A DNA stretch of 53,279 nucleotides, from contig JAEOTQ010000073.1 in NCBI GenBank assembly GCA_016839785.1, positions 1-53,279 of the forward strand, given 5' to 3'. Of the stretch, positions 42,486-51,384 are shown piece after piece; the first letter of the stretch is position 1; every line of letters begins with the position of its first letter. The notes below the pieces were generated by a model. The model ran no database searches. It had not been told where the DNA came from and was given only the letters and a program-made list of their open reading frames with translations. Position numbers and translations under genes: made by a program. Source of the DNA: Candidatus Hodarchaeota archaeon. GTDB lineage: Archaea > Asgardarchaeota > Heimdallarchaeia > Hodarchaeales > Hodarchaeaceae.

Positions 42486-43286
42486 ATGGATTTCAACCCA
42501 GTTTTATTTGGTTTAGCCCTAGCAACGATAGCAGGCTTATCAACAACAATTGGTGCATTGGGGATTTATTTTATAAAACAAGAAAGCAAATTCATTAGTA
42601 TTGCAATGGGTTTCTCGGCTGGAGTTATGATAGGCGTCTCTATGCTCGAATTATTGCCCTCTTCCCTTATTGAAATAGGCTTATTCAAAGCTGGTCTAGC
42701 GTTTATTGTCGGATTGATTACATTCTCAATCTTGGATATACTTGTCCCACATGACTACATGCACGAGCATTCCTGCGATGATGAAGCTTCCTCCCTACAA
42801 AATGGAACAAAAATTGATCTAAAACGAACAGGACGACTTGTAGCAATTGGTATCGCAATTCATAATCTACCAGAAGGATTTATTACTCTATCTGGATCTT
42901 TACATTCCAATGAATTGGGAATATTATTAGCAGTCGCAATTTCTTTTCATAATATTCCAGAAGGTCTATCTGTTGCTGTACCGATCTATGCCTCTACAAA
43001 TGATAAACGACAAGCATTTAAAATATCATTTTTATCTGGATTAGCAGAACCTCTTGGTGCAGTTATTGCAACTGTTGTACTTCTTACGTTTGGATTAACC
43101 ACAGATGAATTTATTCAAATTGCGTTGGCATTTGTGGCAGGAATCATGCTATTTATATCTTTAGATGAACTATTACCATCTGCTAGAGCAACCTGTAAGG
43201 ATAATGGAAATGAATCACATATAGTTACACTGGGAATTATTGCAGGTGTGTCAGTTATCTTTATGACACTAGTAGCTTTATCCTAG
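42486..43286 (+). CDS. zupT: ZIP-family divalent metal transporter
   Basis: GFSAGVM, His-rich loop PHDYMHEH, HNLPEG, HNIPEG, GLAEPLGA, ISLDELLP. Confidence 0.93.
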   Translation: MDFNPVLFGLALATIAGLSTTIGALGIYFIKQESKFISIAMGFSAGVMIGVSMLELLPSSLIEIGLFKAGLAFIVGLITFSILDILVPHDYMHEHSCDDEASSLQNGTKIDLKRTGRLVAIGIAIHNLPEGFITLSGSLHSNELGILLAVAISFHNIPEGLSVAVPIYASTNDKRQAFKISFLSGLAEPLGAVIATVVLLTFGLTTDEFIQIALAFVAGIMLFISLDELLPSARATCKDNGNESHIVTLGIIAGVSVIFMTLVALS

Positions 43287-43305: not shown

Positions 43306-43899
43306 TTGTTTTTATTTTTCACCTCAGTAAATAATAAAAAGACAGTATTAGCTTTAAGTTACTCGCATAAATCAAATGTGAGTTATCAACACTTGAAAGA
43401 TCTTCAAACTATTCTAAGAGAAATCATGAAAGAAGGAAGGAAGAACCCCGGTGAGTGGAAGAGTATATCTGCTCCGACACGTGACAACATGGGTTCGGAT
43501 TTACTATTGTTTCATCCTATATCTGGACCAATATTTCAGGTACGCGCCTATGAAAAGAATCCCTATCAAATGCAAGGAATGGGTACACGTATATCACGAT
43601 CTATTGATGAAGATTTTTTAAAGCTTATTGATAAACGAAAACAATCAGGAGATTTAGGTATTCTAGATTTAAACTTAAAATTACTTCAAAAATCTATGAA
43701 AGATGAGAGGGATATTGACAAAATCCTTTTTAATGCCCTCCTTGGTCACAAAAATCAAGGAATCGATTACCTTAATCTAGGTGACTCTTTTCATCGTCCT
43801 GTGAAACCCCTTCCATTATTAAACGATGAACAAAAACGTTTAGACAAAGAATTTAAGCGTCTCGTAAAGAGAGATGGTAAAGATTCAATGTTTGGTTAA
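43306..43899 (+). CDS. Conserved archaeal hypothetical protein
   Basis: P..W......G.DL...HP..G...AYEKNPY...G.G pattern recalls an uncharacterised euryarchaeal family (from memory); true start probably near 43392. Confidence 0.75.
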   Translation: MFLFFTSVNNKKTVLALSYSHKSNVSYQHLKDLQTILREIMKEGRKNPGEWKSISAPTRDNMGSDLLLFHPISGPIFQVRAYEKNPYQMQGMGTRISRSIDEDFLKLIDKRKQSGDLGILDLNLKLLQKSMKDERDIDKILFNALLGHKNQGIDYLNLGDSFHRPVKPLPLLNDEQKRLDKEFKRLVKRDGKDSMFG

Positions 43900-43959: not shown

Positions 43960-44757
43960 ATGTCTGACTCTGAATATTCCAATTTGCTTTCTGAATTCAC
44001 TAGTGCAGTTGAATCTGAATTACTAGCGTATGTCCGTGGTTTGATTTTATATGGGTCATTTCAAAAAGAGCAAGACAAAGGCCCAGGATGGATTATCCCT
44101 GGAACATCTGACTTAGACCTAGTATTGATCATTGATGTAGACGATATTAACCCTAAGAAGCCAGCAAGGCGTTTTGCAAAAATTGCTGAGACATTATCCG
44201 TATTTTTCGTTCACCCTGTGTACGCACCAATCTTAGATTTAAGACTTCTTGAATACCATGATTTACCTGCTAAACTTGGAATGGCCTTCTCTCCAATTCA
44301 TGCTGAATCTACAGCCCGTCACGGAGAAGTCATCCTCGGAAACAATGTGTTGGAAAATTTCACTTATTCAGAAAAACAGTTGAATCGTTGTACAAAAATC
44401 GCTATCAATCAAGCTTATGAATCCCTTAAAAGTGGTTACTTACAACGAGTAGTAATTGGGGAACAACCACTGACTTACGAATTTGCTGATCTTATGCTTG
44501 ACATAGCACACTCCACACTAGCATTCAAAGGAAGATTAGATCTTGTACGTTCTGAAGTTCCAGAAGAATTTGACAAAATTCTAGGTGACGAATTAGGAGC
44601 CACCAGTGTTGATATCATTTACGAAGCAAAGAAGACTCGAATGGGCTCACAAAAAATGCGTCGATCGGATTTCATAAGGGGTGTTATGGAAGTTTCACAG
44701 AAAATAATGAAATATATTCGAGATCCATTTACATTCGAGGAAAATCAAAGATCTTGA
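43960..44757 (+). CDS. Minimal nucleotidyltransferase (Pol-beta fold) with C-terminal helical HEPN-like domain
   Basis: LILYGS...SDLDLVL, third carboxylate near LDLRLL, GEVILG; helical C-terminus. Confidence 0.8.
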   Translation: MSDSEYSNLLSEFTSAVESELLAYVRGLILYGSFQKEQDKGPGWIIPGTSDLDLVLIIDVDDINPKKPARRFAKIAETLSVFFVHPVYAPILDLRLLEYHDLPAKLGMAFSPIHAESTARHGEVILGNNVLENFTYSEKQLNRCTKIAINQAYESLKSGYLQRVVIGEQPLTYEFADLMLDIAHSTLAFKGRLDLVRSEVPEEFDKILGDELGATSVDIIYEAKKTRMGSQKMRRSDFIRGVMEVSQKIMKYIRDPFTFEENQRS

Positions 44758-44842: not shown

Positions 44843-46435
44843 ATGAATCTAAAATCAATAATGTTACTTTCTATACTATCTAGTTTTGCTTTATTGACAG
44901 GATTCATTTTATTATATTTCATTCCAGTAACAAGACCAAATATTCCTGGTTTTCCATTCCAAATTACAGGAGGTGCCTTAATTGGATCTAATCTTGAAAA
45001 TAATTCTGGAATTGTATGGGGTCAGAGCTTTAACATTGAAATAATGCAAAAGTATGATGTAACCCTTAGAAATGCACAGTTTACAGTTCTAATATTGAAT
45101 TTTCCTACATCAGGGGTAGTGATTTCAGGTCTAGAGGATAAAGAAACCTTCACAATAGAAGGTCCGTTAAAAAGTAGGTTGGAATTAACGGGAAAAAATC
45201 GGAATGGTCGAATAATACAAATTTCAAATGTTCCTGATGATGGATCTTCCATTAAATTCCTTACAATGGGTGATACTCAAGGATTTTCAGATCTATATGA
45301 AGAAATGATATCAAGTAAAGAGGCTGTAGAAAGTAGTTTTATTCTGCATCTAGGAGATATTACTGCATCAGGTGATAAAGAAAGTCTTCAAAATTTTCAA
45401 AATATCTCTGAGCGCTCAAAAATCCCAATATACACAACTCCAGGAAATCATGATCTCAAATCATCGAATTCTACAGAATTTTATGAGATGTACTTTGGAA
45501 ATGCTGAATATTTCTTTGAATACAAAGGATTCTTATTTATCAGTCTTAATTCATCAACGGGGTATTACTCAGAAAACAGTTTTTCATTTCTATCAGAGCT
45601 ATTGTCAGAATTTCCTAAAAAGCCCAAAGTAATATTTACCCACATTCCGATTTTTGACCCTAGGCCTGGTGAAGATCATGCTCTCATTAATCTAACACAA
45701 TCTACAAGAATGCTTACTCTTTTGAATAATACTAATGTAAAAGCAGTAATATCAGGGCATATACATTTTTTTAATCATACTATTTTCAATGGAATTCACT
45801 TCATAACCTCGGGTGGAGGAGGAGCTTACTTATATGAGACCCCTGAAGATGGAGGTTTTCATCATTTTGCTGAAATTACCATAAATACTGATACTCAGGA
45901 GTTAACTGTTAGTACCATACCATTAACTAAACTGGAGCAAGAGACAGATATTATTGTCTTGAAAGATGCTGTTTCACGAATTTTTTCACTTGAAGACATT
46001 CTGAGTGAATTCACATTTGCATCTGGAAATAGTAGTTTCCAGAACCAGTATGATAATTGGCGTGCAAATGGTTCCTATATTGGGATAAGAATTAGTGATT
46101 TATTAGAAACAGTTGGAGGGATGTCTACTAATCAATGGTTAACCGTAGACTCGTGGGATGGTTTAACTTCTAACTTTAGCTATTCTGTTGTTTATCCTAA
46201 TAGTACTTGGTATCAAATTCAGGGTGATATGGTTTTAGCATTTTCCTTTGATGGCTTGGTAGTTCCTGATTATGTAGATGGATACAGAATTGTATTCCTA
46301 CCCCCAGACGGTAGCTACAGTAATGAGGATTGCAAAAATACTTCTTCTCCAAATGAAGGATGGAATGTTTATCCCTCAGCAGGATTCAGATGGGTGAAGT
46401 ATGTTTACTCACTTTCAATCAATGGAGGAGGTTAA
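44843..46435 (+). CDS. Membrane-anchored metallophosphoesterase (Icc/CpdA-like) with C-terminal molybdopterin-oxidoreductase-like domain
   Basis: N-terminal TM; GDTQG, HLGDI, PGNHD, FTHIP, SGHIH; C-terminal YIGIRISDLL, DG, MVLAFSFDG, RIVF, RWVKYV; many NxS/T sequons. Confidence 0.85.
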   Translation: MNLKSIMLLSILSSFALLTGFILLYFIPVTRPNIPGFPFQITGGALIGSNLENNSGIVWGQSFNIEIMQKYDVTLRNAQFTVLILNFPTSGVVISGLEDKETFTIEGPLKSRLELTGKNRNGRIIQISNVPDDGSSIKFLTMGDTQGFSDLYEEMISSKEAVESSFILHLGDITASGDKESLQNFQNISERSKIPIYTTPGNHDLKSSNSTEFYEMYFGNAEYFFEYKGFLFISLNSSTGYYSENSFSFLSELLSEFPKKPKVIFTHIPIFDPRPGEDHALINLTQSTRMLTLLNNTNVKAVISGHIHFFNHTIFNGIHFITSGGGGAYLYETPEDGGFHHFAEITINTDTQELTVSTIPLTKLEQETDIIVLKDAVSRIFSLEDILSEFTFASGNSSFQNQYDNWRANGSYIGIRISDLLETVGGMSTNQWLTVDSWDGLTSNFSYSVVYPNSTWYQIQGDMVLAFSFDGLVVPDYVDGYRIVFLPPDGSYSNEDCKNTSSPNEGWNVYPSAGFRWVKYVYSLSINGGG

Positions 46436-46442
46436 AATAACA

Positions 46443-47582
46443 ATGAATGATGGATCAAGGAAACCTAAAGAAATTTCAGATAGTATTGGCGGCTCTCCTT
46501 CCCACATTCCTTGGATAAGACCTGATTTAGTAAAACACAAGAAAAAGGAACCGTACTTCCAAACCAGTGATCTTGTGATAATTGCACTGTTTAGTAGTTT
46601 AGGGGGTATTTTCAGTACATTTATTGGATATTTGGCTAATTTATTGAATAGTCTAATTGGAATCCCGTTTGGGGGAGGTCAAATCTTAGCTGGACTTCAT
46701 ATTTTTTGGTTAGTTTTTATTTTTCTCTTAACAGACAGGAAAGTGGGTGTAACATTCTCAGCTGGAGTTTTGAAGGGATTTGTGGAATTCTTTACAGGTA
46801 ATGCACATGGATTACTGGTCATACTTCTCTCTTCTAGCCAAGGACTAATTATAGAACTGGTACTAATTTTATTTCTTTCCACAAAACGAAATAGTATCGT
46901 AGCTATTGCAGCTGGATTCGCTGGATTGTCAAATGTACTATTACAACAAATTCTTTTCTTTAATTCTCAGATACCATTCACTTTCCTTGCTATGATAGGT
47001 ATTATCAGTTTTATCTCGGGAATGACCTTAGGAGGAATTTTTCCAATTTCTATATTCTTCGGATTTAAACAAGCTTCACTATTGCAATGGAGAAAACCTA
47101 AATCCATATCTCCTAGATATGCTAGGAACATAAAAACTATTCGTATCAGTATTATTGTGATTATACTGCTTGCTGAATTCTCACTTATTGCATTTTTAGT
47201 GCTTCAGCATAAGAATTCAATCCAAATCACAGGTGAAGTCTACAATCCTTACACATTTTATGTAAGCGATTTTCCTCATATAACTATAGAAGCAGAATTA
47301 ACAAGTGAATATTTTCCTCAACCCCCAAGGAATTACACAGGGGTCCCTCTCCATGTTATACTTGAACACGCCCAACCGAAATTCCAATTTTATGGAATTC
47401 TCCTGAAAGCTCGTGCACCTGATCTCTATTCTGTAATGTTTAATTCAACTGTTGTAGACAATAATGACAAGTTCATTATTGCTTTGGTTGACGGTGTATT
47501 GAGACTAATTGCTTCTGAGTATCACGGCACATATTGGATATACGATATAGGTACTATTGAAGTAACCACGATTGCATTCTGA
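46443..47582 (+). CDS. ECF transporter S component (YkoE-like) fused to a molybdopterin-oxidoreductase-like domain
   Basis: DLVIIAL, GLH, RKVG, GFVEFFTG, QGLIIEL; C-terminal IQITGEV.NP, YTGVPL..IL, RLI, YWI; SD GGAGG. Confidence 0.85.
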   Translation: MNDGSRKPKEISDSIGGSPSHIPWIRPDLVKHKKKEPYFQTSDLVIIALFSSLGGIFSTFIGYLANLLNSLIGIPFGGGQILAGLHIFWLVFIFLLTDRKVGVTFSAGVLKGFVEFFTGNAHGLLVILLSSSQGLIIELVLILFLSTKRNSIVAIAAGFAGLSNVLLQQILFFNSQIPFTFLAMIGIISFISGMTLGGIFPISIFFGFKQASLLQWRKPKSISPRYARNIKTIRISIIVIILLAEFSLIAFLVLQHKNSIQITGEVYNPYTFYVSDFPHITIEAELTSEYFPQPPRNYTGVPLHVILEHAQPKFQFYGILLKARAPDLYSVMFNSTVVDNNDKFIIALVDGVLRLIASEYHGTYWIYDIGTIEVTTIAF

Positions 47583-47659
47583 TTACGACTTCTTTTTCAT
47601 CGCCTCTAAGAAAGAAAAGAAATTTGATTAAACGCTGGTATGAAAAATTTTGATTAACA

Positions 47660-49150
47660 GTGGATTCTAATCAGATTATTATACAAATGAAAGATATAAA
47701 CTTTCAATATTCTGATTCCCAACCAAAAATAATATCAAATGTAAATCTAAAGATTAACAAAGGAGAATTCATCGTAATCACTGGAAGAAGTGGGAGTGGA
47801 AAATCCACACTAGCACTAATACTGAGTGGATTCATCCCTCATTTGATAGGGGGAACCTATACGGGAGAGGTCATATATCAAGGCATAGAAACCCGTTCAT
47901 TGACTTTAGGTGAGATTAGTCAACTGGTAGGTTTAGTGCATCAAGACCCAGAAAATCAAATTGTGACCTCAAATGTGTTGGAGGAAGTAGCATTTGGACC
48001 AGAAAACTTGAATCTCCCAAAAGAAGAGATATTAGAGAGAATAAGCTTATGTTTATCAGCTACAAACTTGGATGAACTGATTTCTAGGGGAACTAATGAA
48101 TTATCAGGAGGGGAAAAGCAACGAGTGGCACTAGCTTCTTTACTAGCAATGGGAGGATCAGTTTTAATTTTAGACGAACCAACATCGTACTTAGATATCG
48201 TAAATAGAGCACAAGTATTGAAAACCCTTCAGAAATTAAATTTAAGTCAAAATATGACAATTATCGTAATTGATCATCAACCAGAGATATATAAGGATTT
48301 ATTGACCAGATTAATAGTTCTTGAAAAAGGTTCAATTATAGGAGATTACTATGCAGAAGAGATCGATTATACTCCGTACCAAGTCTCAGTAAATAGTCTA
48401 AAAAAAATCCGAATCCTTCCACCAAACAATTCAATTGATAATATTCTTCAAACAGATGAATATTCTGTTTTTCTTAAGAATACAAAGATTTTATCTGATA
48501 TTTCGTTGAAAATTAATTCTGGACTGATATATGGCATAATTGGTCGAAATGGTTCTGGAAAAACCACATTTGCTAATTCTTTGTTGAATCTACACACAAA
48601 TAAAGGAAAAATGTCAATTTTCGGTAAAAATACAGCAAAAAAACCTACACATGAGATAGCAAAAGACTGTGGATTGATTTTTCAAAATCCGAATCACCAG
48701 ATATTCGAACAAACAGTCAAAAAAGAAATCCTTTTTGCTCCATCAAATCTAAATTTAGATAGTGAACTTACTGATGAAAAGATCCATCAACTTCTAGTGG
48801 ATTCATCACTAGAACAATACAAAAATTCTCCACCATTCGGATTATCATTTGGTGAGAAAAGAAGATTAACAGTTATATCTATAGATGTATATTCACCATC
48901 GATTTTAATATTGGATGAACCTTTTATCGGTCAAGATCGGTACAATTTCGAATTTATCCTTAAAATACTACAAAAGAGAAAAGAAAATGGGTTAACCTCC
49001 GTAATAATTTCTCACAGAAAAGAATTATTCAATTTAGTCGATAGATTTATAATATTTGACCAAGGACATCTGATTGGGGAAGGGAATCCGAGAGAAGTCT
49101 TACCCATAATTAAGAGTAAACACTTATATCCCATAATGGAGGAGATTTAA
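47660..49150 (+). CDS. ECF transporter duplicated ATPase (EcfA-A' fusion)
   Basis: Two ABC cassettes: GRSGSGKS/QDPENQ/LSGGEKQR/LDEP and GRNGSGKT/QNPNHQ/LSFGEKRR/LDEP. Confidence 0.94.
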   Translation: MDSNQIIIQMKDINFQYSDSQPKIISNVNLKINKGEFIVITGRSGSGKSTLALILSGFIPHLIGGTYTGEVIYQGIETRSLTLGEISQLVGLVHQDPENQIVTSNVLEEVAFGPENLNLPKEEILERISLCLSATNLDELISRGTNELSGGEKQRVALASLLAMGGSVLILDEPTSYLDIVNRAQVLKTLQKLNLSQNMTIIVIDHQPEIYKDLLTRLIVLEKGSIIGDYYAEEIDYTPYQVSVNSLKKIRILPPNNSIDNILQTDEYSVFLKNTKILSDISLKINSGLIYGIIGRNGSGKTTFANSLLNLHTNKGKMSIFGKNTAKKPTHEIAKDCGLIFQNPNHQIFEQTVKKEILFAPSNLNLDSELTDEKIHQLLVDSSLEQYKNSPPFGLSFGEKRRLTVISIDVYSPSILILDEPFIGQDRYNFEFILKILQKRKENGLTSVIISHRKELFNLVDRFIIFDQGHLIGEGNPREVLPIIKSKHLYPIMEEI

Positions 49151-49950
49151 TGTCAGGAGCGGTTAAAATTTCTAGAGAATTGATTGATGTTAAGCTCGAA
49201 GCTTCAAGTAATGCTACAAATCCAGTAATCAAATTTATTGCAATTATAGCCATAGCTGTTTACTACTTCATGATTACTGATCTGTATAGAATGTATTTAC
49301 TAATATTTGCTATTTTAATCTATTATAATTTCAAAGCTTTGCCATATCAGGTAGCAAAACCAAAATATCGGTTTTTAATTATTTTTTCTCTTCTTATTGT
49401 CATAGTTCAACTAGCTGCGAGTAGACAAGGCGATTTAGTATTTTTTTTGATACCAAAAATATTCAATTTGGGACCATTTTTCCCTATTTACCAAAAAGGA
49501 TTATTCTACGCAATATTATTTGTAGGTAGGTTTTGGGGTGTAATAACAATTTCCTGGGTGTTTATCGATTCAACCAACCCTTTTGACTTTGCACAGTCAT
49601 TAACTAATTTAAAAGTTCCTTATCGGCTTGCATACTCCCTAAGTCTTGCTCTACGGTTTACTCCTGTCTTAAATAATGAAATAACAGTAATTAGAAACGC
49701 TCAACAAACTCGTGGATTAAATTCAACTCCAAATTCAATAAAAGGGACTTATAATCTACTAAAATTTACATTATTTCCGATAATTAGTTCTACACTAAAT
49801 CGGATTAAAGATATCACACTAAGTATGGAGGGAAGAGCATTTGGATTATACGTCGATAGAACTCCTCTAAAAGAAATGCCTCTTCAAATTTTGGACATAA
49901 TACAACTCTTTGTTCTAATTTTGTTACTCATGCTTCTCTTGATGTTTTGA
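49150..49950 (+). CDS. ecfT: ECF transporter transmembrane component T
   Basis: LALRFTP, AQQTRG and MEGRAF X-R-X motifs; TAATG coupling to the ATPase. Confidence 0.92.
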   Translation: MSGAVKISRELIDVKLEASSNATNPVIKFIAIIAIAVYYFMITDLYRMYLLIFAILIYYNFKALPYQVAKPKYRFLIIFSLLIVIVQLAASRQGDLVFFLIPKIFNLGPFFPIYQKGLFYAILFVGRFWGVITISWVFIDSTNPFDFAQSLTNLKVPYRLAYSLSLALRFTPVLNNEITVIRNAQQTRGLNSTPNSIKGTYNLLKFTLFPIISSTLNRIKDITLSMEGRAFGLYVDRTPLKEMPLQILDIIQLFVLILLLMLLLMF

Positions 49951-50033: not shown

Positions 50034-50762
50034 GTGAGAGCAATTCAATCACATGGTAAAGACAACCCTTCATCTGAAAAACCATTAATGCAGTGCAGAA
50101 TAGTTTTGATAGATATTGATCAGCTCCATGGACATGAACAAGTAGTTGAATCGCAGGTAGACTATTTAAAAGCAAATTTACAAGAGTTAGGGTACTTTTT
50201 TCGACCGATATTGGTTGTAAAAAAACATAATGTCGTTTTAGATGGTCATCATCGTGTTCAAGCATTGAAAGAATTGGGTGGAGTAAGAATTCCTTGTATA
50301 GAAATTCCTTATCTGAACAATCCTGATATTACCCTAGCAACATGGTTTCCTATCTATACAGGATCGTCAGATGTATTTCCAAAGAGTTTTAAAAAGCTTA
50401 ATATTCAATGGAAGCAAGTAGAAGGAACAAGTACAACCCTCTTCTCAGATCCTAATTATGGATTTGCCTTATATGCAAAAAATGGGCAGTGGATCTTGAA
50501 AGGAAGCCAAAAGGAGATTTTTAAGATCTTTCTTAAGAATTATAATTCTGAAAGATTTGAATATGTTAAAACAACGAATTACGCAGTAAACTCAGTAAAT
50601 AATGGCTACTCCTCCTTCGCTTTACTCCGTAAAACGTTAACTAAGCAAGATGTTATAAATACTGCAAAGTCTGGAAATGTATATGCCCCTAAAACAACCA
50701 GACATATCCTTACCTATCGCTATCAAGATATAAAAGTTCCACTCGAAAATTTATTTGATTAA
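50034..50762 (+). CDS. serK: ADP-dependent free serine kinase SerK-like (ParB/Srx fold)
   Basis: HEQVV, FFRP, DGHHR, TWFP, TKQDV...G.V..PKTTRH, VPLENLF match Thermococcus SerK motifs along the full length. Confidence 0.82.
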   Translation: MRAIQSHGKDNPSSEKPLMQCRIVLIDIDQLHGHEQVVESQVDYLKANLQELGYFFRPILVVKKHNVVLDGHHRVQALKELGGVRIPCIEIPYLNNPDITLATWFPIYTGSSDVFPKSFKKLNIQWKQVEGTSTTLFSDPNYGFALYAKNGQWILKGSQKEIFKIFLKNYNSERFEYVKTTNYAVNSVNNGYSSFALLRKTLTKQDVINTAKSGNVYAPKTTRHILTYRYQDIKVPLENLFD

Positions 50763-50793: not shown

Positions 50794-51384
50794 TTGGATA
50801 TTGAACTAATTCAAGTAACTGGTACAGAAGGCATTCTTGAAGGAATGAAAACTTCAAGACGTCGAAATACAATCGATAACGTTTCTGAAAAGGTCTTTAA
50901 TTGGGGACATTGGTCTGTACTTGAACATAGTTCGATTACAGTAAAAATTTCAAATATTAGTAGAGCTTGCACACACCAACTTGTACGACATAGAGTAGGA
51001 AATTCATATACTCAAGAATCGCAAAGATATTTCGATCCTTTAACTGATCCTGATTGGTATGTTATTCCACCAAGAATCAAGCGGAACAAGGAATTATTAG
51101 AGAAATATCGAAGTTCTAGAGAAGAAGAAGCGAACGAATATCGGTATTATCGTGAGAATGGGATCCCAAAAGAGGATGCCAGATTTTGTTTACCCAATGC
51201 ATGTAAAACGATAGTTACGTGGACTTTTAATATGAGTAGCTTGATTTGGTTCTTGGAAATGCGTATGGCAAAGGCCGCACAATGGGAAATTCGAATACTT
51301 GCCGAAAAAATCTACAAACTTGTGATGAATTTGCCAGAATGGGCTGAATTCTTACAACATTGGGAACCTGGACAAAGAAGATAG
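50794..51384 (+). CDS. thyX: Flavin-dependent thymidylate synthase
   Basis: GHWSVLEH, SRACTHQLVRHR..S..QESQRY, EDARFCLP, AQWEIR. Confidence 0.96.
   Translation: MDIELIQVTGTEGILEGMKTSRRRNTIDNVSEKVFNWGHWSVLEHSSITVKISNISRACTHQLVRHRVGNSYTQESQRYFDPLTDPDWYVIPPRIKRNKELLEKYRSSREEEANEYRYYRENGIPKEDARFCLPNACKTIVTWTFNMSSLIWFLEMRMAKAAQWEIRILAEKIYKLVMNLPEWAEFLQHWEPGQRR

Follow-up and report, generated by a model that had tools for sequence, protein, structure and literature searches.

The 53,279-nucleotide contig JAEOTQ010000073.1 of Candidatus Hodarchaeota archaeon (assembly GCA_016839785.1, positions 1 to 53,279 of the forward strand; hereafter the window is this whole stretch) carries at positions 44843-49950 an operon of four adjacent, co-oriented open reading frames (ORFs) on the plus strand, encoding a surface phosphoesterase, the S component of an energy-coupling factor (ECF) transporter, a double ATPase and EcfT. 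We propose, with a probability of about 0.68, that this operon is a dedicated group I ECF importer of the YkoEDC type, which salvages from the environment either the Mo/W pyranopterin cofactor itself or a late precursor, for example molybdopterin, for a host that would need this cofactor and be unable to make it; this reading draws on sequence comparison and structure models. That the system is tied to Mo/W-cofactor metabolism is supported by the agreement of three lines of evidence, namely the sulfite oxidase (SUOX) fold of domains in two of the proteins, riboswitches of the molybdenum cofactor (Moco) class in related bacterial loci, and the distribution of genes among host genomes. The salvage reading is preferred because these lines agree and because neither pterin synthesis nor the metal insertase is present in most archaeal hosts; therefore an importer of the metal alone would be useless there. 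A link to a pterin or Mo/W cofactor had already been suggested in the first-pass annotation of this DNA, made from the sequence alone, and it is now backed by the Moco riboswitches, by the complementary distribution of MoaA and MoeA, and by a cytoplasmic kinase whose gene is conserved in 43 of 80 loci. The host assembly comprises 4.04 Mb and is 84.5% complete (the window is its contig C24), and the closest homologues of the window proteins are labelled Hodarchaeales.

The first-pass annotation had also claimed that the phosphoesterase and the S component end in related domains resembling the sulfite-oxidase/MsrP fold, and both parts of this claim hold. Pairwise BLASTP of the two C-terminal domains (161 and 123 residues) detected no similarity (E 1.6); profile-profile comparison with hhalign related them at 96.7% (E 4.4e-10, 81 columns), and at 96.8% (E 2.6e-10) when the alignments were rebuilt from independent loci. 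The window domains themselves score below the PF00174 cut-off of 24 bits (18.1 for the phosphoesterase domain, 12.5 for the S domain), and the same family is matched at E <= 0.01 by 28 of 87 S homologues and 17 of 69 phosphoesterase homologues. Searches of the PDB with the single domain sequences returned chance-level matches only (lectin, AstC), and the phosphoesterase-domain profile (alignment A5) had no sequence match there at E <= 10; the S-family profile matched SoxC 2xts at 1.7e-4, and hhalign to the MsrP-like proteins of the same genome reached 99.1% (S domain) and 95.1%. AlphaFold models were obtained for the S domain (predicted local distance difference test, pLDDT, 91.7) and the phosphoesterase domain (pLDDT 96.9). 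Foldseek placed the first of them closest to SorA 2blf (1.8e-6, TMq 0.80), followed by SoxC, YedY and PruR (5.5e-4), and the second closest to PruR 7kom (5.7e-6), followed by SorA and chicken sulfite oxidase. The matches to SorA, SoxC, YedY and sulfite oxidase ranged from E 1.8e-6 to 1e-3, nitrate reductase was also matched, and the PruR structures found were 7kom, 7kp2, 7kos and 7rkb.

The column of the Mo-ligand Cys was defined by alignment to this residue (CVEG motif) in the genome's own MsrP-like protein. In the S domain it is occupied by Gly in 78 of 79 sequences and by Ser in the remaining one, which is the window protein; in the phosphoesterase domain it is Asn throughout (46/46 in alignment A5 and 69/69 in alignment A2). 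As had been noticed at first pass, the S domain is free of Cys, there being none in the whole S protein, and the phosphoesterase domain has none at the expected place, its lone Cys (C497) being situated elsewhere, at a position that is Ala in 30 of 69 phosphoesterase relatives. Tyr, Asp-Gly-(Tyr) and Trp are invariant in both domain families; the A5 profile gave no sequence-level match to PruR. At the level of profiles and predicted structures it is thus confirmed that both C-terminal domains are homologous SUOX-fold domains lacking the Mo-ligand Cys.

The genome also encodes two strong PF00174 proteins of 350 and 342 aa, L001 (G000:C141:1-2982) and L002 (G000:C60:24915-28352), in each of which an N-terminal anchor precedes an MsrP-like SUOX domain, and the C-terminal part is a membrane region of several helices. 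One of these MsrP-like paralogues has the Mo-ligand Cys (CVEG), and the other has Ser there.

Hydropathy and the positive-inside rule were the sole basis for the topology. After the S core come a K/R-rich loop, a strong 7th helix and then the domain, and because of this loop and helix the domain is predicted to lie outside, as is the anchored phosphoesterase. Hence the two domains are homologous and both are predicted on the same side of the membrane. A complex prediction for the S domain (A6) with the phosphoesterase domain (A5) gave a score of 0.00 and a mark of 0.32 with controls absent, and provides no verdict.

The S core belongs to PF09819 (the ABC_cobalt/YkoE family) with 56.1 bits against a cut-off of 25.2, and the profile of the S family matches YkoE 5edl at 1.4e-14 and 2.2e-12, the core alignment stopping before the 7th helix; the S-component homologues numbered 90. 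The double ATPase matches NCBIfam ECF_ATPase_1, and S, T and A/A' are co-encoded in one operon, as is characteristic of group I ECF systems, with the same order in 69-75 of the 80 loci considered below. The 123-residue soluble domain after the 7th helix departs from the group I norm of having no extracytoplasmic substrate-binding domain.

In thiamine-bound YkoE, Trp49 stacks against the pyrimidine ring, which Glu77 and Gln95 read, Asp131 and Tyr46 read the thiazole ring, and loss of Trp49 abolishes thiamine binding (PMC5037267). According to two profile alignments, in the S family Trp49 is replaced by an invariant His, Tyr46 by Ala and Asp131 by Gln, and the equivalents of Glu77 and Gln95 are kept. 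The pocket, changed in this manner and retaining the Glu/Gln pair, would therefore fit a different ligand with an aminopyrimidine-like ring, such as a pterin. The S component thus does not simply group with the validated thiamine protein with the extra domain as a dispensable addition: its stacking residue and thiazole contacts differ, and the domain is present in 78 of 80 loci.

One could nevertheless suppose that the operon encodes a thiamine or hydroxymethylpyrimidine (HMP) importer like YkoEDC of Bacillus, with the phosphoesterase dephosphorylating thiamine pyrophosphate (TPP), thiamine monophosphate or HMP phosphate, and with the extra domains binding the aminopyrimidine ring. This would agree with the PF09819 core and its match to YkoE, with the YkoD/YkoC arrangement of a fused double ATPase and T, with the conserved pyrimidine contacts, and with the lack of ThiC in all 39 Asgard genomes with the fused S gene. 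Still, we consider it unlikely, given that His is invariant where YkoE requires Trp and neither thiazole contact is preserved, that the fold of the added domain is that of a pterin or Moco binder, and that the loci searched have no TPP riboswitch and the bacterial ones have Moco riboswitches. Moreover, none of the 37 genomes of the family f10 has ThiC, yet those with the system (25) are distinct from those with MoaA over the cut-off (11). Finally, thiamine could be served by a second, unfused PF09819 ORF of the same genome (L004, G000:C56:599-1189, 206 aa), which is also present in five genomes of the same genus and could be the genuine S component for thiamine/HMP; stop codons were reported inside its matched stretch by the genome search.

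The protein encoded by the first gene of the operon is, as initially annotated, an anchored metallophosphoesterase with all five metal motifs and many N-glycosylation sequons. It matches PF00149 with 56.3 bits, and the five motif blocks (GDTQG143, HLGDIT169, GNHD201, FTHIP265, GHIH305) are near-invariant among 69 sequences. The first block has the purple-acid-phosphatase-like form GDxxG, with a conserved Gln where DxH has His, and the family profile matches GpdQ 2dxl (2.2e-10), purple acid phosphatases (2.4e-8) and Rv0805. Its homologues (n = 84) are for the most part from Asgard. The only strongly hydrophobic segment is the N-terminal one, and there are 12 N-x-S/T sequons compared to 6.6 +/- 2.2 in shuffled sequences, at least 12 being reached in 2% of shuffles.

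To describe the conservation of the module, we scanned one genome per species, which yielded 183 S relatives, kept 80 loci and searched these with hidden Markov models (HMMs) built from our own alignments. The loci belong to Asgard archaea of the Heimdall, Hod, Hermod, Thor, Odin and Loki types, to Thermoplasmata, Methanofastidiosa, Theionarchaea and Hadarchaeota, and to three Firmicutes. The fused domain is found on the S gene in 78 loci, the remaining two being cut by contig ends; the ATPase adjoins S in 75 loci, and EcfT is present in 69. The phosphoesterase is encoded in 50 of the 80 loci (45 with the SUOX-like domain and 5 without it), a further protein built of SUOX-like domains in 45, and at least one partner with the same domain in 70. 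If only loci with at least 1.7 kb of upstream sequence are considered (n = 72), the phosphoesterase occurs in 47, a partner with the same domain in 64, and no partner in 8, among which are the two loci most closely related to the window. Thus, the phosphoesterase is conserved beside the ECF genes across Asgard, Thermoplasmata with related archaea, and Firmicutes.

Clustering of the neighbouring ORFs yielded one more conserved member, a protein of approximately 240 aa beside the operon in 43 of 80 loci, which has intact protein-kinase-like motifs (VAK, E, GDxxxRN and DFE). Among the 20 of these 43 sequences that were aligned (alignment A4), 17 are matched by the APH family PF01636, RIO and Bud32 being more distant; strong orthologues of the kinase are also found in two Thermoplasmata-type chromosomes.

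The gene content of the hosts was considered for five genomes, the one containing the window and four closed chromosomes carrying the system. MoaA was found in none of them, MoaC in one (partial), MoaE in none over the cut-off and MoeA in one; in the controls for these searches 11 of 14 genomes were positive, four archaea among them. In the window's genome, at its completeness of 84.5%, none of MoaA, MoaC, MoaE and MoeA was found. All five hosts encode DMSOR-family enzymes and AOR-type tungsten enzymes, the latter in 9 (window's genome), 8, 10, 1 and 5 copies. The MoCF_biosynth family PF00994, present in 4 of 5 hosts, was left unused, since it is also positive in controls beyond Moco producers.

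We then observed the same relation in a sample of 151 Asgard genomes, each at least 85% complete, where the full-length fused S gene is present in 39 genomes, MoaA in 65 and MoeA in 66. MoaA over the cut-off occurs in none of the 39 fused-S genomes, compared to 65 of the 112 others, and AOR is encoded in all 39. The two states, system and MoaA, alternate inside the families f1, f10 and f16 and inside the genus g39. In f10 (n = 37), 25 genomes have the system, 11 have MoaA over the cut-off and one (G085) has neither; in f16 six genomes have the system and one has MoaA; in the window's own genus seven have the system, one has MoaA and two have neither. As ThiC is absent throughout the alternating families (0/9, 0/37 and 0/7), the alternation tracks the Moco genes and not the thiamine genes. 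ThiC as such shows a sharp lineage split in this sample (0/76 in the families f1, f2, f3, f10 and f16 vs 34/34 in f13).

WtpA-like tungstate-binding proteins are found in 0 of 39 fused-S genomes, and 13 of 13 matches fall into MoaA-positive genomes; this alone does not show that the fused-S genomes lack metal uptake, and TupA was not searched. ModA (TIGR01256) is absent from all 151 genomes and hence uninformative. In a second phylum (151 genomes), five genomes have the system, and MoaA is found in none of these five vs 74 of the 146 others. One Methanofastidiosum and one Hadarchaeota genome with the system likewise lack MoaA and MoaE.

The bacterial loci link the system to Moco in a different way. 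At the Rfam gathering thresholds we found seven Moco/tungsten-cofactor riboswitches in three bacterial loci, L047, L060 and L064, with 39.5-68.2 bits against a threshold of 36. The riboswitch is situated directly 5' of the S gene in L047 and L060, 5' of two TupA-like genes running into S-A-T in L064 and also in L060, and 5' of a gene for a giant SUOX-like surface protein in each of the three loci. The first-pass annotation had suggested a neighbourhood survey for links to Moco or W genes; besides the riboswitches, these loci hold MoeA, a MoCF_biosynth gene, a Mod/Tup-type ABC system, TupA-like binding proteins and an HTH-PBP regulator. A fourth bacterial locus, L108 (19 kb), comprises, in this order, a large SUOX-like surface protein, the phosphoesterase, a small SUOX-like protein, S, A, T and the kinase. 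No TPP (THI-box) riboswitch was found in 13 loci (141 kb), in the window together with 6 loci (132 kb), or in the bacterial loci L047, L060, L064 and L108; the 13 loci had no other Rfam class either. The giant surface proteins (1098-1761 aa) are encoded at L047:13727-19012, L060:13285-17526, L064:13895-19084 and L108:1494-4790. In Pfam the one of L047 has PKD, Shr-like haem-binding HID, chitobiase-C and PF00174-like domains; those of L060, L064 and L108 were scanned with our own SUOX-like HMMs only.

These surroundings could also be understood if the system were an ECF-type importer of the oxyanions tungstate or molybdate, with the SUOX-like domains serving as anion receptors. ECF systems for metals (Co, Ni) exist, the bacterial loci lie amid Mod/Tup-type ABC genes, TupA-like proteins and MoeA, and the bacterial hosts make their own pterin. 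Furthermore, Moco riboswitches often control Mo/W transporters, as stated in the Rfam description and in a regulon survey (PMC3766115). Against oxyanions, MoeA is absent in 38 and MoaA in all 39 of the 39 fused-S Asgard genomes, and therefore imported metal would be unusable in them. The conserved phosphoesterase and kinase would be left unexplained, a classical Mo/W ABC system is already next door in the bacteria, and the S-domain alignment has no invariant Arg or Lys. We therefore regard oxyanion import as improbable.

Another pterin- or purine-derived compound could be imported instead, such as a small unconjugated pterin, a precursor of folate or methanopterin, or a 7-deazaguanine, in which case the connection with Moco would be indirect. 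PruR, which is the best or a high structural match of both domains, binds small pterins and not Moco, and the Cys-carrying hairpin of the enzymes is short here too; a 2026 review on pterin signalling describes the route of pterins across membranes as unknown (PMC13259868). A simple pterin, however, cannot replace MoaA, MoaC, molybdopterin synthase and MoeA, whose distribution the system mirrors, and the riboswitch class is Moco/W rather than tetrahydrofolate or preQ1. This makes the alternative quite unlikely.

The Cys-less domain is also associated with a transporter of a different type. In the family f2, which has no fused S gene, the phosphoesterase-domain profile A5 gives weaker matches in 15 of 18 genomes, to proteins of approximately 335-365 aa. 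In all five f2 regions that were fetched (L097-L101, e.g. L097:6862-11722), an anchored double SUOX-like protein is directly followed by two ABC_membrane+ABC_tran half-transporters, a pair forming an exporter-fold heterodimer. The double-domain protein has approximately 335 aa (approximately 200 aa in L101), and its domains are Cys-less; Pfam applied to one of these regions (L097) gave PF00174 with 26.6 bits. The two MoaA-positive genomes of f2 are both without the double SUOX-like system, and no others of this family have MoaA. Taken together, the fused-S or f2-type system is found in 57 of the 151 Asgard genomes, one of which has MoaA (fragmentary), vs 64 of the 94 genomes without either.

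The f2 loci bear on whether the shared domain could be mainly a protein-protein docking module, assembling surface enzymes on the transporter and having no ligand of its own. Such a role would account for the 70 of 80 loci in which at least one neighbour of the S gene codes for another protein containing this domain, and PruR itself acts via binding to a membrane partner (PMC11194511). Yet the residues invariant in both families (Tyr, Asp-Gly and Trp) are common to the cofactor-binding SUOX enzymes, and the same domain accompanies a different transporter type in f2. We hence find pure docking highly unlikely.

Returning to the salvage importer, the fold, the absent Cys, the gene linkage and the gene distribution are observed, and from these we infer all steps of the following mechanism. 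The C-terminal SUOX-like domain of the phosphoesterase would hold the pterin moiety, so that the enzyme could trim the phosphate-bearing end, plausibly by cleavage of a molybdopterin guanine or cytosine dinucleotide (MGD/MCD) or by removal of a terminal phosphate. The homologous domain fused to S would capture the trimmed product at the cell surface and hand it to the YkoE-like membrane pocket, where the Glu/Gln pair would read the aminopyrimidine ring and His would replace the thiamine-stacking Trp. EcfT and the double ATPase would power the import, and in many lineages, not including the window's genome, the APH-like kinase beside the operon would re-phosphorylate the imported compound. Since Hodarchaeales-type hosts also lack the metal insertase MoeA, the species they would import is most likely already metal-loaded. 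That Cys-less, truncated SUOX folds can bind free pterins outside the cell is known from PruR (PMC11194511).

Several observations weigh against this reading. Free Moco is labile. The truncated site of PruR has been argued to be too small for whole Moco (PMC11194511), and the hairpin region is shortened in both domains considered here. C497 of the phosphoesterase domain, although in a non-canonical place, is kept in 43 of 46 sequences of A5 but in 36 of 69 of A2. Two of the five thiamine contacts of YkoE are retained, and an invariant Trp occurs three residues, i.e. one helical turn, past the His. The accessory genes are not universal, since 25 of the 72 loci have no phosphoesterase (L005 and L006, the closest two relatives, among these), and the window's genome and two closed Heimdall chromosomes have no kinase orthologue. 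As for bacteria, L108 with its full module is without a riboswitch, two further bacterial loci are on contigs too short to be informative, and all three bacterial (Firmicute) hosts tested have MoaA and MoaE, so that there the system is not complementary to the biosynthesis. Among the fused-S genomes, one has MoeA (G073; 1/39) and one has a MoaA-like match below the cut-off (G040). The absence of ThiC in all of them implies that the hosts are auxotrophs for the thiamine pyrimidine, which keeps the thiamine alternative alive. Most genomes in these counts are metagenome-assembled, and related genomes are not independent in them. Finally, 29 of the 151 Asgard genomes (f13, f2 and others) have neither MoaA/MoeA nor a SUOX-like system, and 27 of these 29 encode AOR; therefore, either a further route to the cofactor must exist or the detection is incomplete.

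A wider picture, which we would place at even odds, can be drawn from the sequences. The operon would be the first dedicated importer of the Mo/W pyranopterin cofactor, and Cys-less SUOX domains would be surface receptors recruited at least twice, in the ECF S fusion and beside the exporter-fold ABC pair. Large parts of Asgard (Hodarchaeales and Heimdall-type) and Thermoplasmata-related archaea would be cofactor auxotrophs, running tungsten enzymes on the cofactor of their neighbours, trimmed by the surface phosphoesterase and re-activated by the kinase.

The features of the operon are collected in Table 1. The true start of the S gene is probably Met15 at 46443 (379 aa), downstream of the phosphoesterase stop, as a 98%-identical homologue (P0005) has 379 aa.

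Table 1. Features of the operon in the window (coordinates in nucleotides of the window; residues numbered within each ORF).
Feature	Coordinates	Strand	Evidence
Membrane-anchored surface metallophosphoesterase, 530 aa	44843..46435	+	ORF; PF00149 E 7.3e-15
Hydrophobic N-terminal anchor/signal segment of the phosphoesterase, residues 6-24	44858..44914	+	Kyte-Doolittle 19-residue window 2.42
Catalytic metallophosphoesterase domain, residues 138-308	45254..45766	+	Pfam range PF00149; near-invariant columns
C-terminal SUOX/PruR-like domain of the phosphoesterase without Cys ligand, residues 370-530 (predicted fold)	45950..46432	+	AlphaFold, Foldseek
YkoE-family ECF S component, 393-aa ORF, with 7th helix and fused extracellular domain (predicted topology)	46401..47582	+	PF09819 5.3e-15
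Extra (7th) transmembrane helix of the S component, residues 249-267	47145..47201	+	hydropathy 2.88; K/R-rich loop before helix
C-terminal Cys-free SUOX-like domain of the S component, residues 271-393 (predicted fold)	47211..47579	+	AlphaFold, Foldseek, profile
Fused double ECF ATPase (A-A', YkoD-like), 496 aa	47660..49150	+	two ABC_tran (PF00005) 1.1e-48; TIGR04520 8e-108
ECF T component (CbiQ/EcfT), 266 aa	49150..49950	+	PF02361 1.8e-30

Directly after EcfT, the ORF 50034-50762 (+) is related over its full length to SerK, the ADP-dependent kinase of free serine in archaea (5x0b, E 9.3e-25), scoring 126 bits for NCBIfam SerK against a cut-off of 380, and its position is kept in 10 near-relative loci. 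Directly upstream of the operon, two ORFs (43306-43899 and 43960-44757, both +) encode proteins of 197 and 265 aa. Besides the window, 12 Hod/Heimdall-type loci have this pair in highly conserved form, even those that lack the phosphoesterase, and no Pfam, NCBIfam or PDB profile matches it; the 265-aa protein lies near NTP_transf_2/Polbeta clusters in a language-model atlas (0.95-0.96), which we treat as a lead. Both the SerK-like ORF and the upstream pair were considered as the absent cytoplasmic partner on the grounds of the conserved order (10-13 near relatives) and the language-model lead, and were not retained. The conserved block is bordered by a ZIP-family metal transporter (42486-43286, +) and ThyX (50794-51384, +), and its order (ZIP, two ORFs without assigned function, the phosphoesterase where present, S, A, T, the SerK-like ORF, ThyX) recurs in 10-13 loci, among which the S identity falls as low as approximately 50%.

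If the proposed function is true, the Mo/W cofactor would join the vitamins traded among microbes, and Asgard metabolic reconstructions would change, as illustrated by the window's genome with its 9 AOR genes and none of the four synthesis markers found. It would also bear on the syntrophy and the hard growth of Asgard and suggest a medium supplement, and the Cys-less SUOX fold would gain a second job beyond signalling. According to the textbook rule, ECF transporters work without an extracytoplasmic binding domain, and this rule would be broken. We know of no importer of the Mo/W cofactor in any organism. Our search of the literature on ECF transporters in combination with Mo cofactor, molybdopterin, tungsten, riboswitch, salvage and Asgard found no description of such a system, and the available part of a regulon survey lists no category for Moco uptake (PMC3766115). 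What would be new here, judging from the sequences, is that an ECF importer would have an extracellular receptor domain fused to it, be served by accessory enzymes of its own, and carry a substrate of a class not known as transported.

Among the known systems, YkoEDC of Bacillus subtilis has the same operon of a dedicated S component, a fused double ATPase and T, with the PF09819 core and Glu77/Gln95 kept. Unlike it, the system described here has the 7th helix with the predicted extracellular SUOX-like domain and the partner phosphoesterase and kinase; no THI-box was found for it, and its bacterial relatives have Moco riboswitches. The metal importers CbiMNQO and NikMNQO also belong to group I of the ECF systems and possess accessory parts, extracytoplasmic or in the membrane; they differ in the S family and have no SUOX-like domain, hydrolase or kinase. 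The combination of a hydrolase, an importer and a kinase is familiar from the salvage of phosphorylated vitamins, e.g. NadN/PnuC/NadR for NAD precursors, or thiamine phosphatase, transporter and kinase. As in these schemes, the compound would be trimmed outside, taken up and re-activated inside, and all three gene types are linked in many loci; they differ from the present system in that its hydrolase and its transporter have one ligand-type domain in common.

The enzymes of the SUOX family (sulfite oxidase, SorA, SoxC and YedY/MsrP) have the same fold (TM approximately 0.8 over the query) and the same motifs (Y/W-x-G-V-P-L, D-G-Y and W-V), whereas the domains of the window have no Mo-ligating Cys, a shortened active-site hairpin, and neither a dimerisation nor a haem domain. 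PruR, a pterin-binding protein of the periplasm that controls DcpA in Agrobacterium and further Proteobacteria (7KOS, 7KOM, 7RKB), is likewise a small SUOX fold without the Cys, and it is extracytoplasmic, as is predicted for the window's domains. In PruR, the pterin ring is sandwiched by conserved Tyr and Trp and held by an Asn hydrogen bond, and Trp (of the PW motif) is found at the Cys position, where the domains of the window family have Gly/Ser or Asn. Most importantly, PruR is a free protein, encoded in an operon with the DcpA-type GGDEF-EAL enzyme, whereas the window's domains are fused to a transporter subunit and to a hydrolase.

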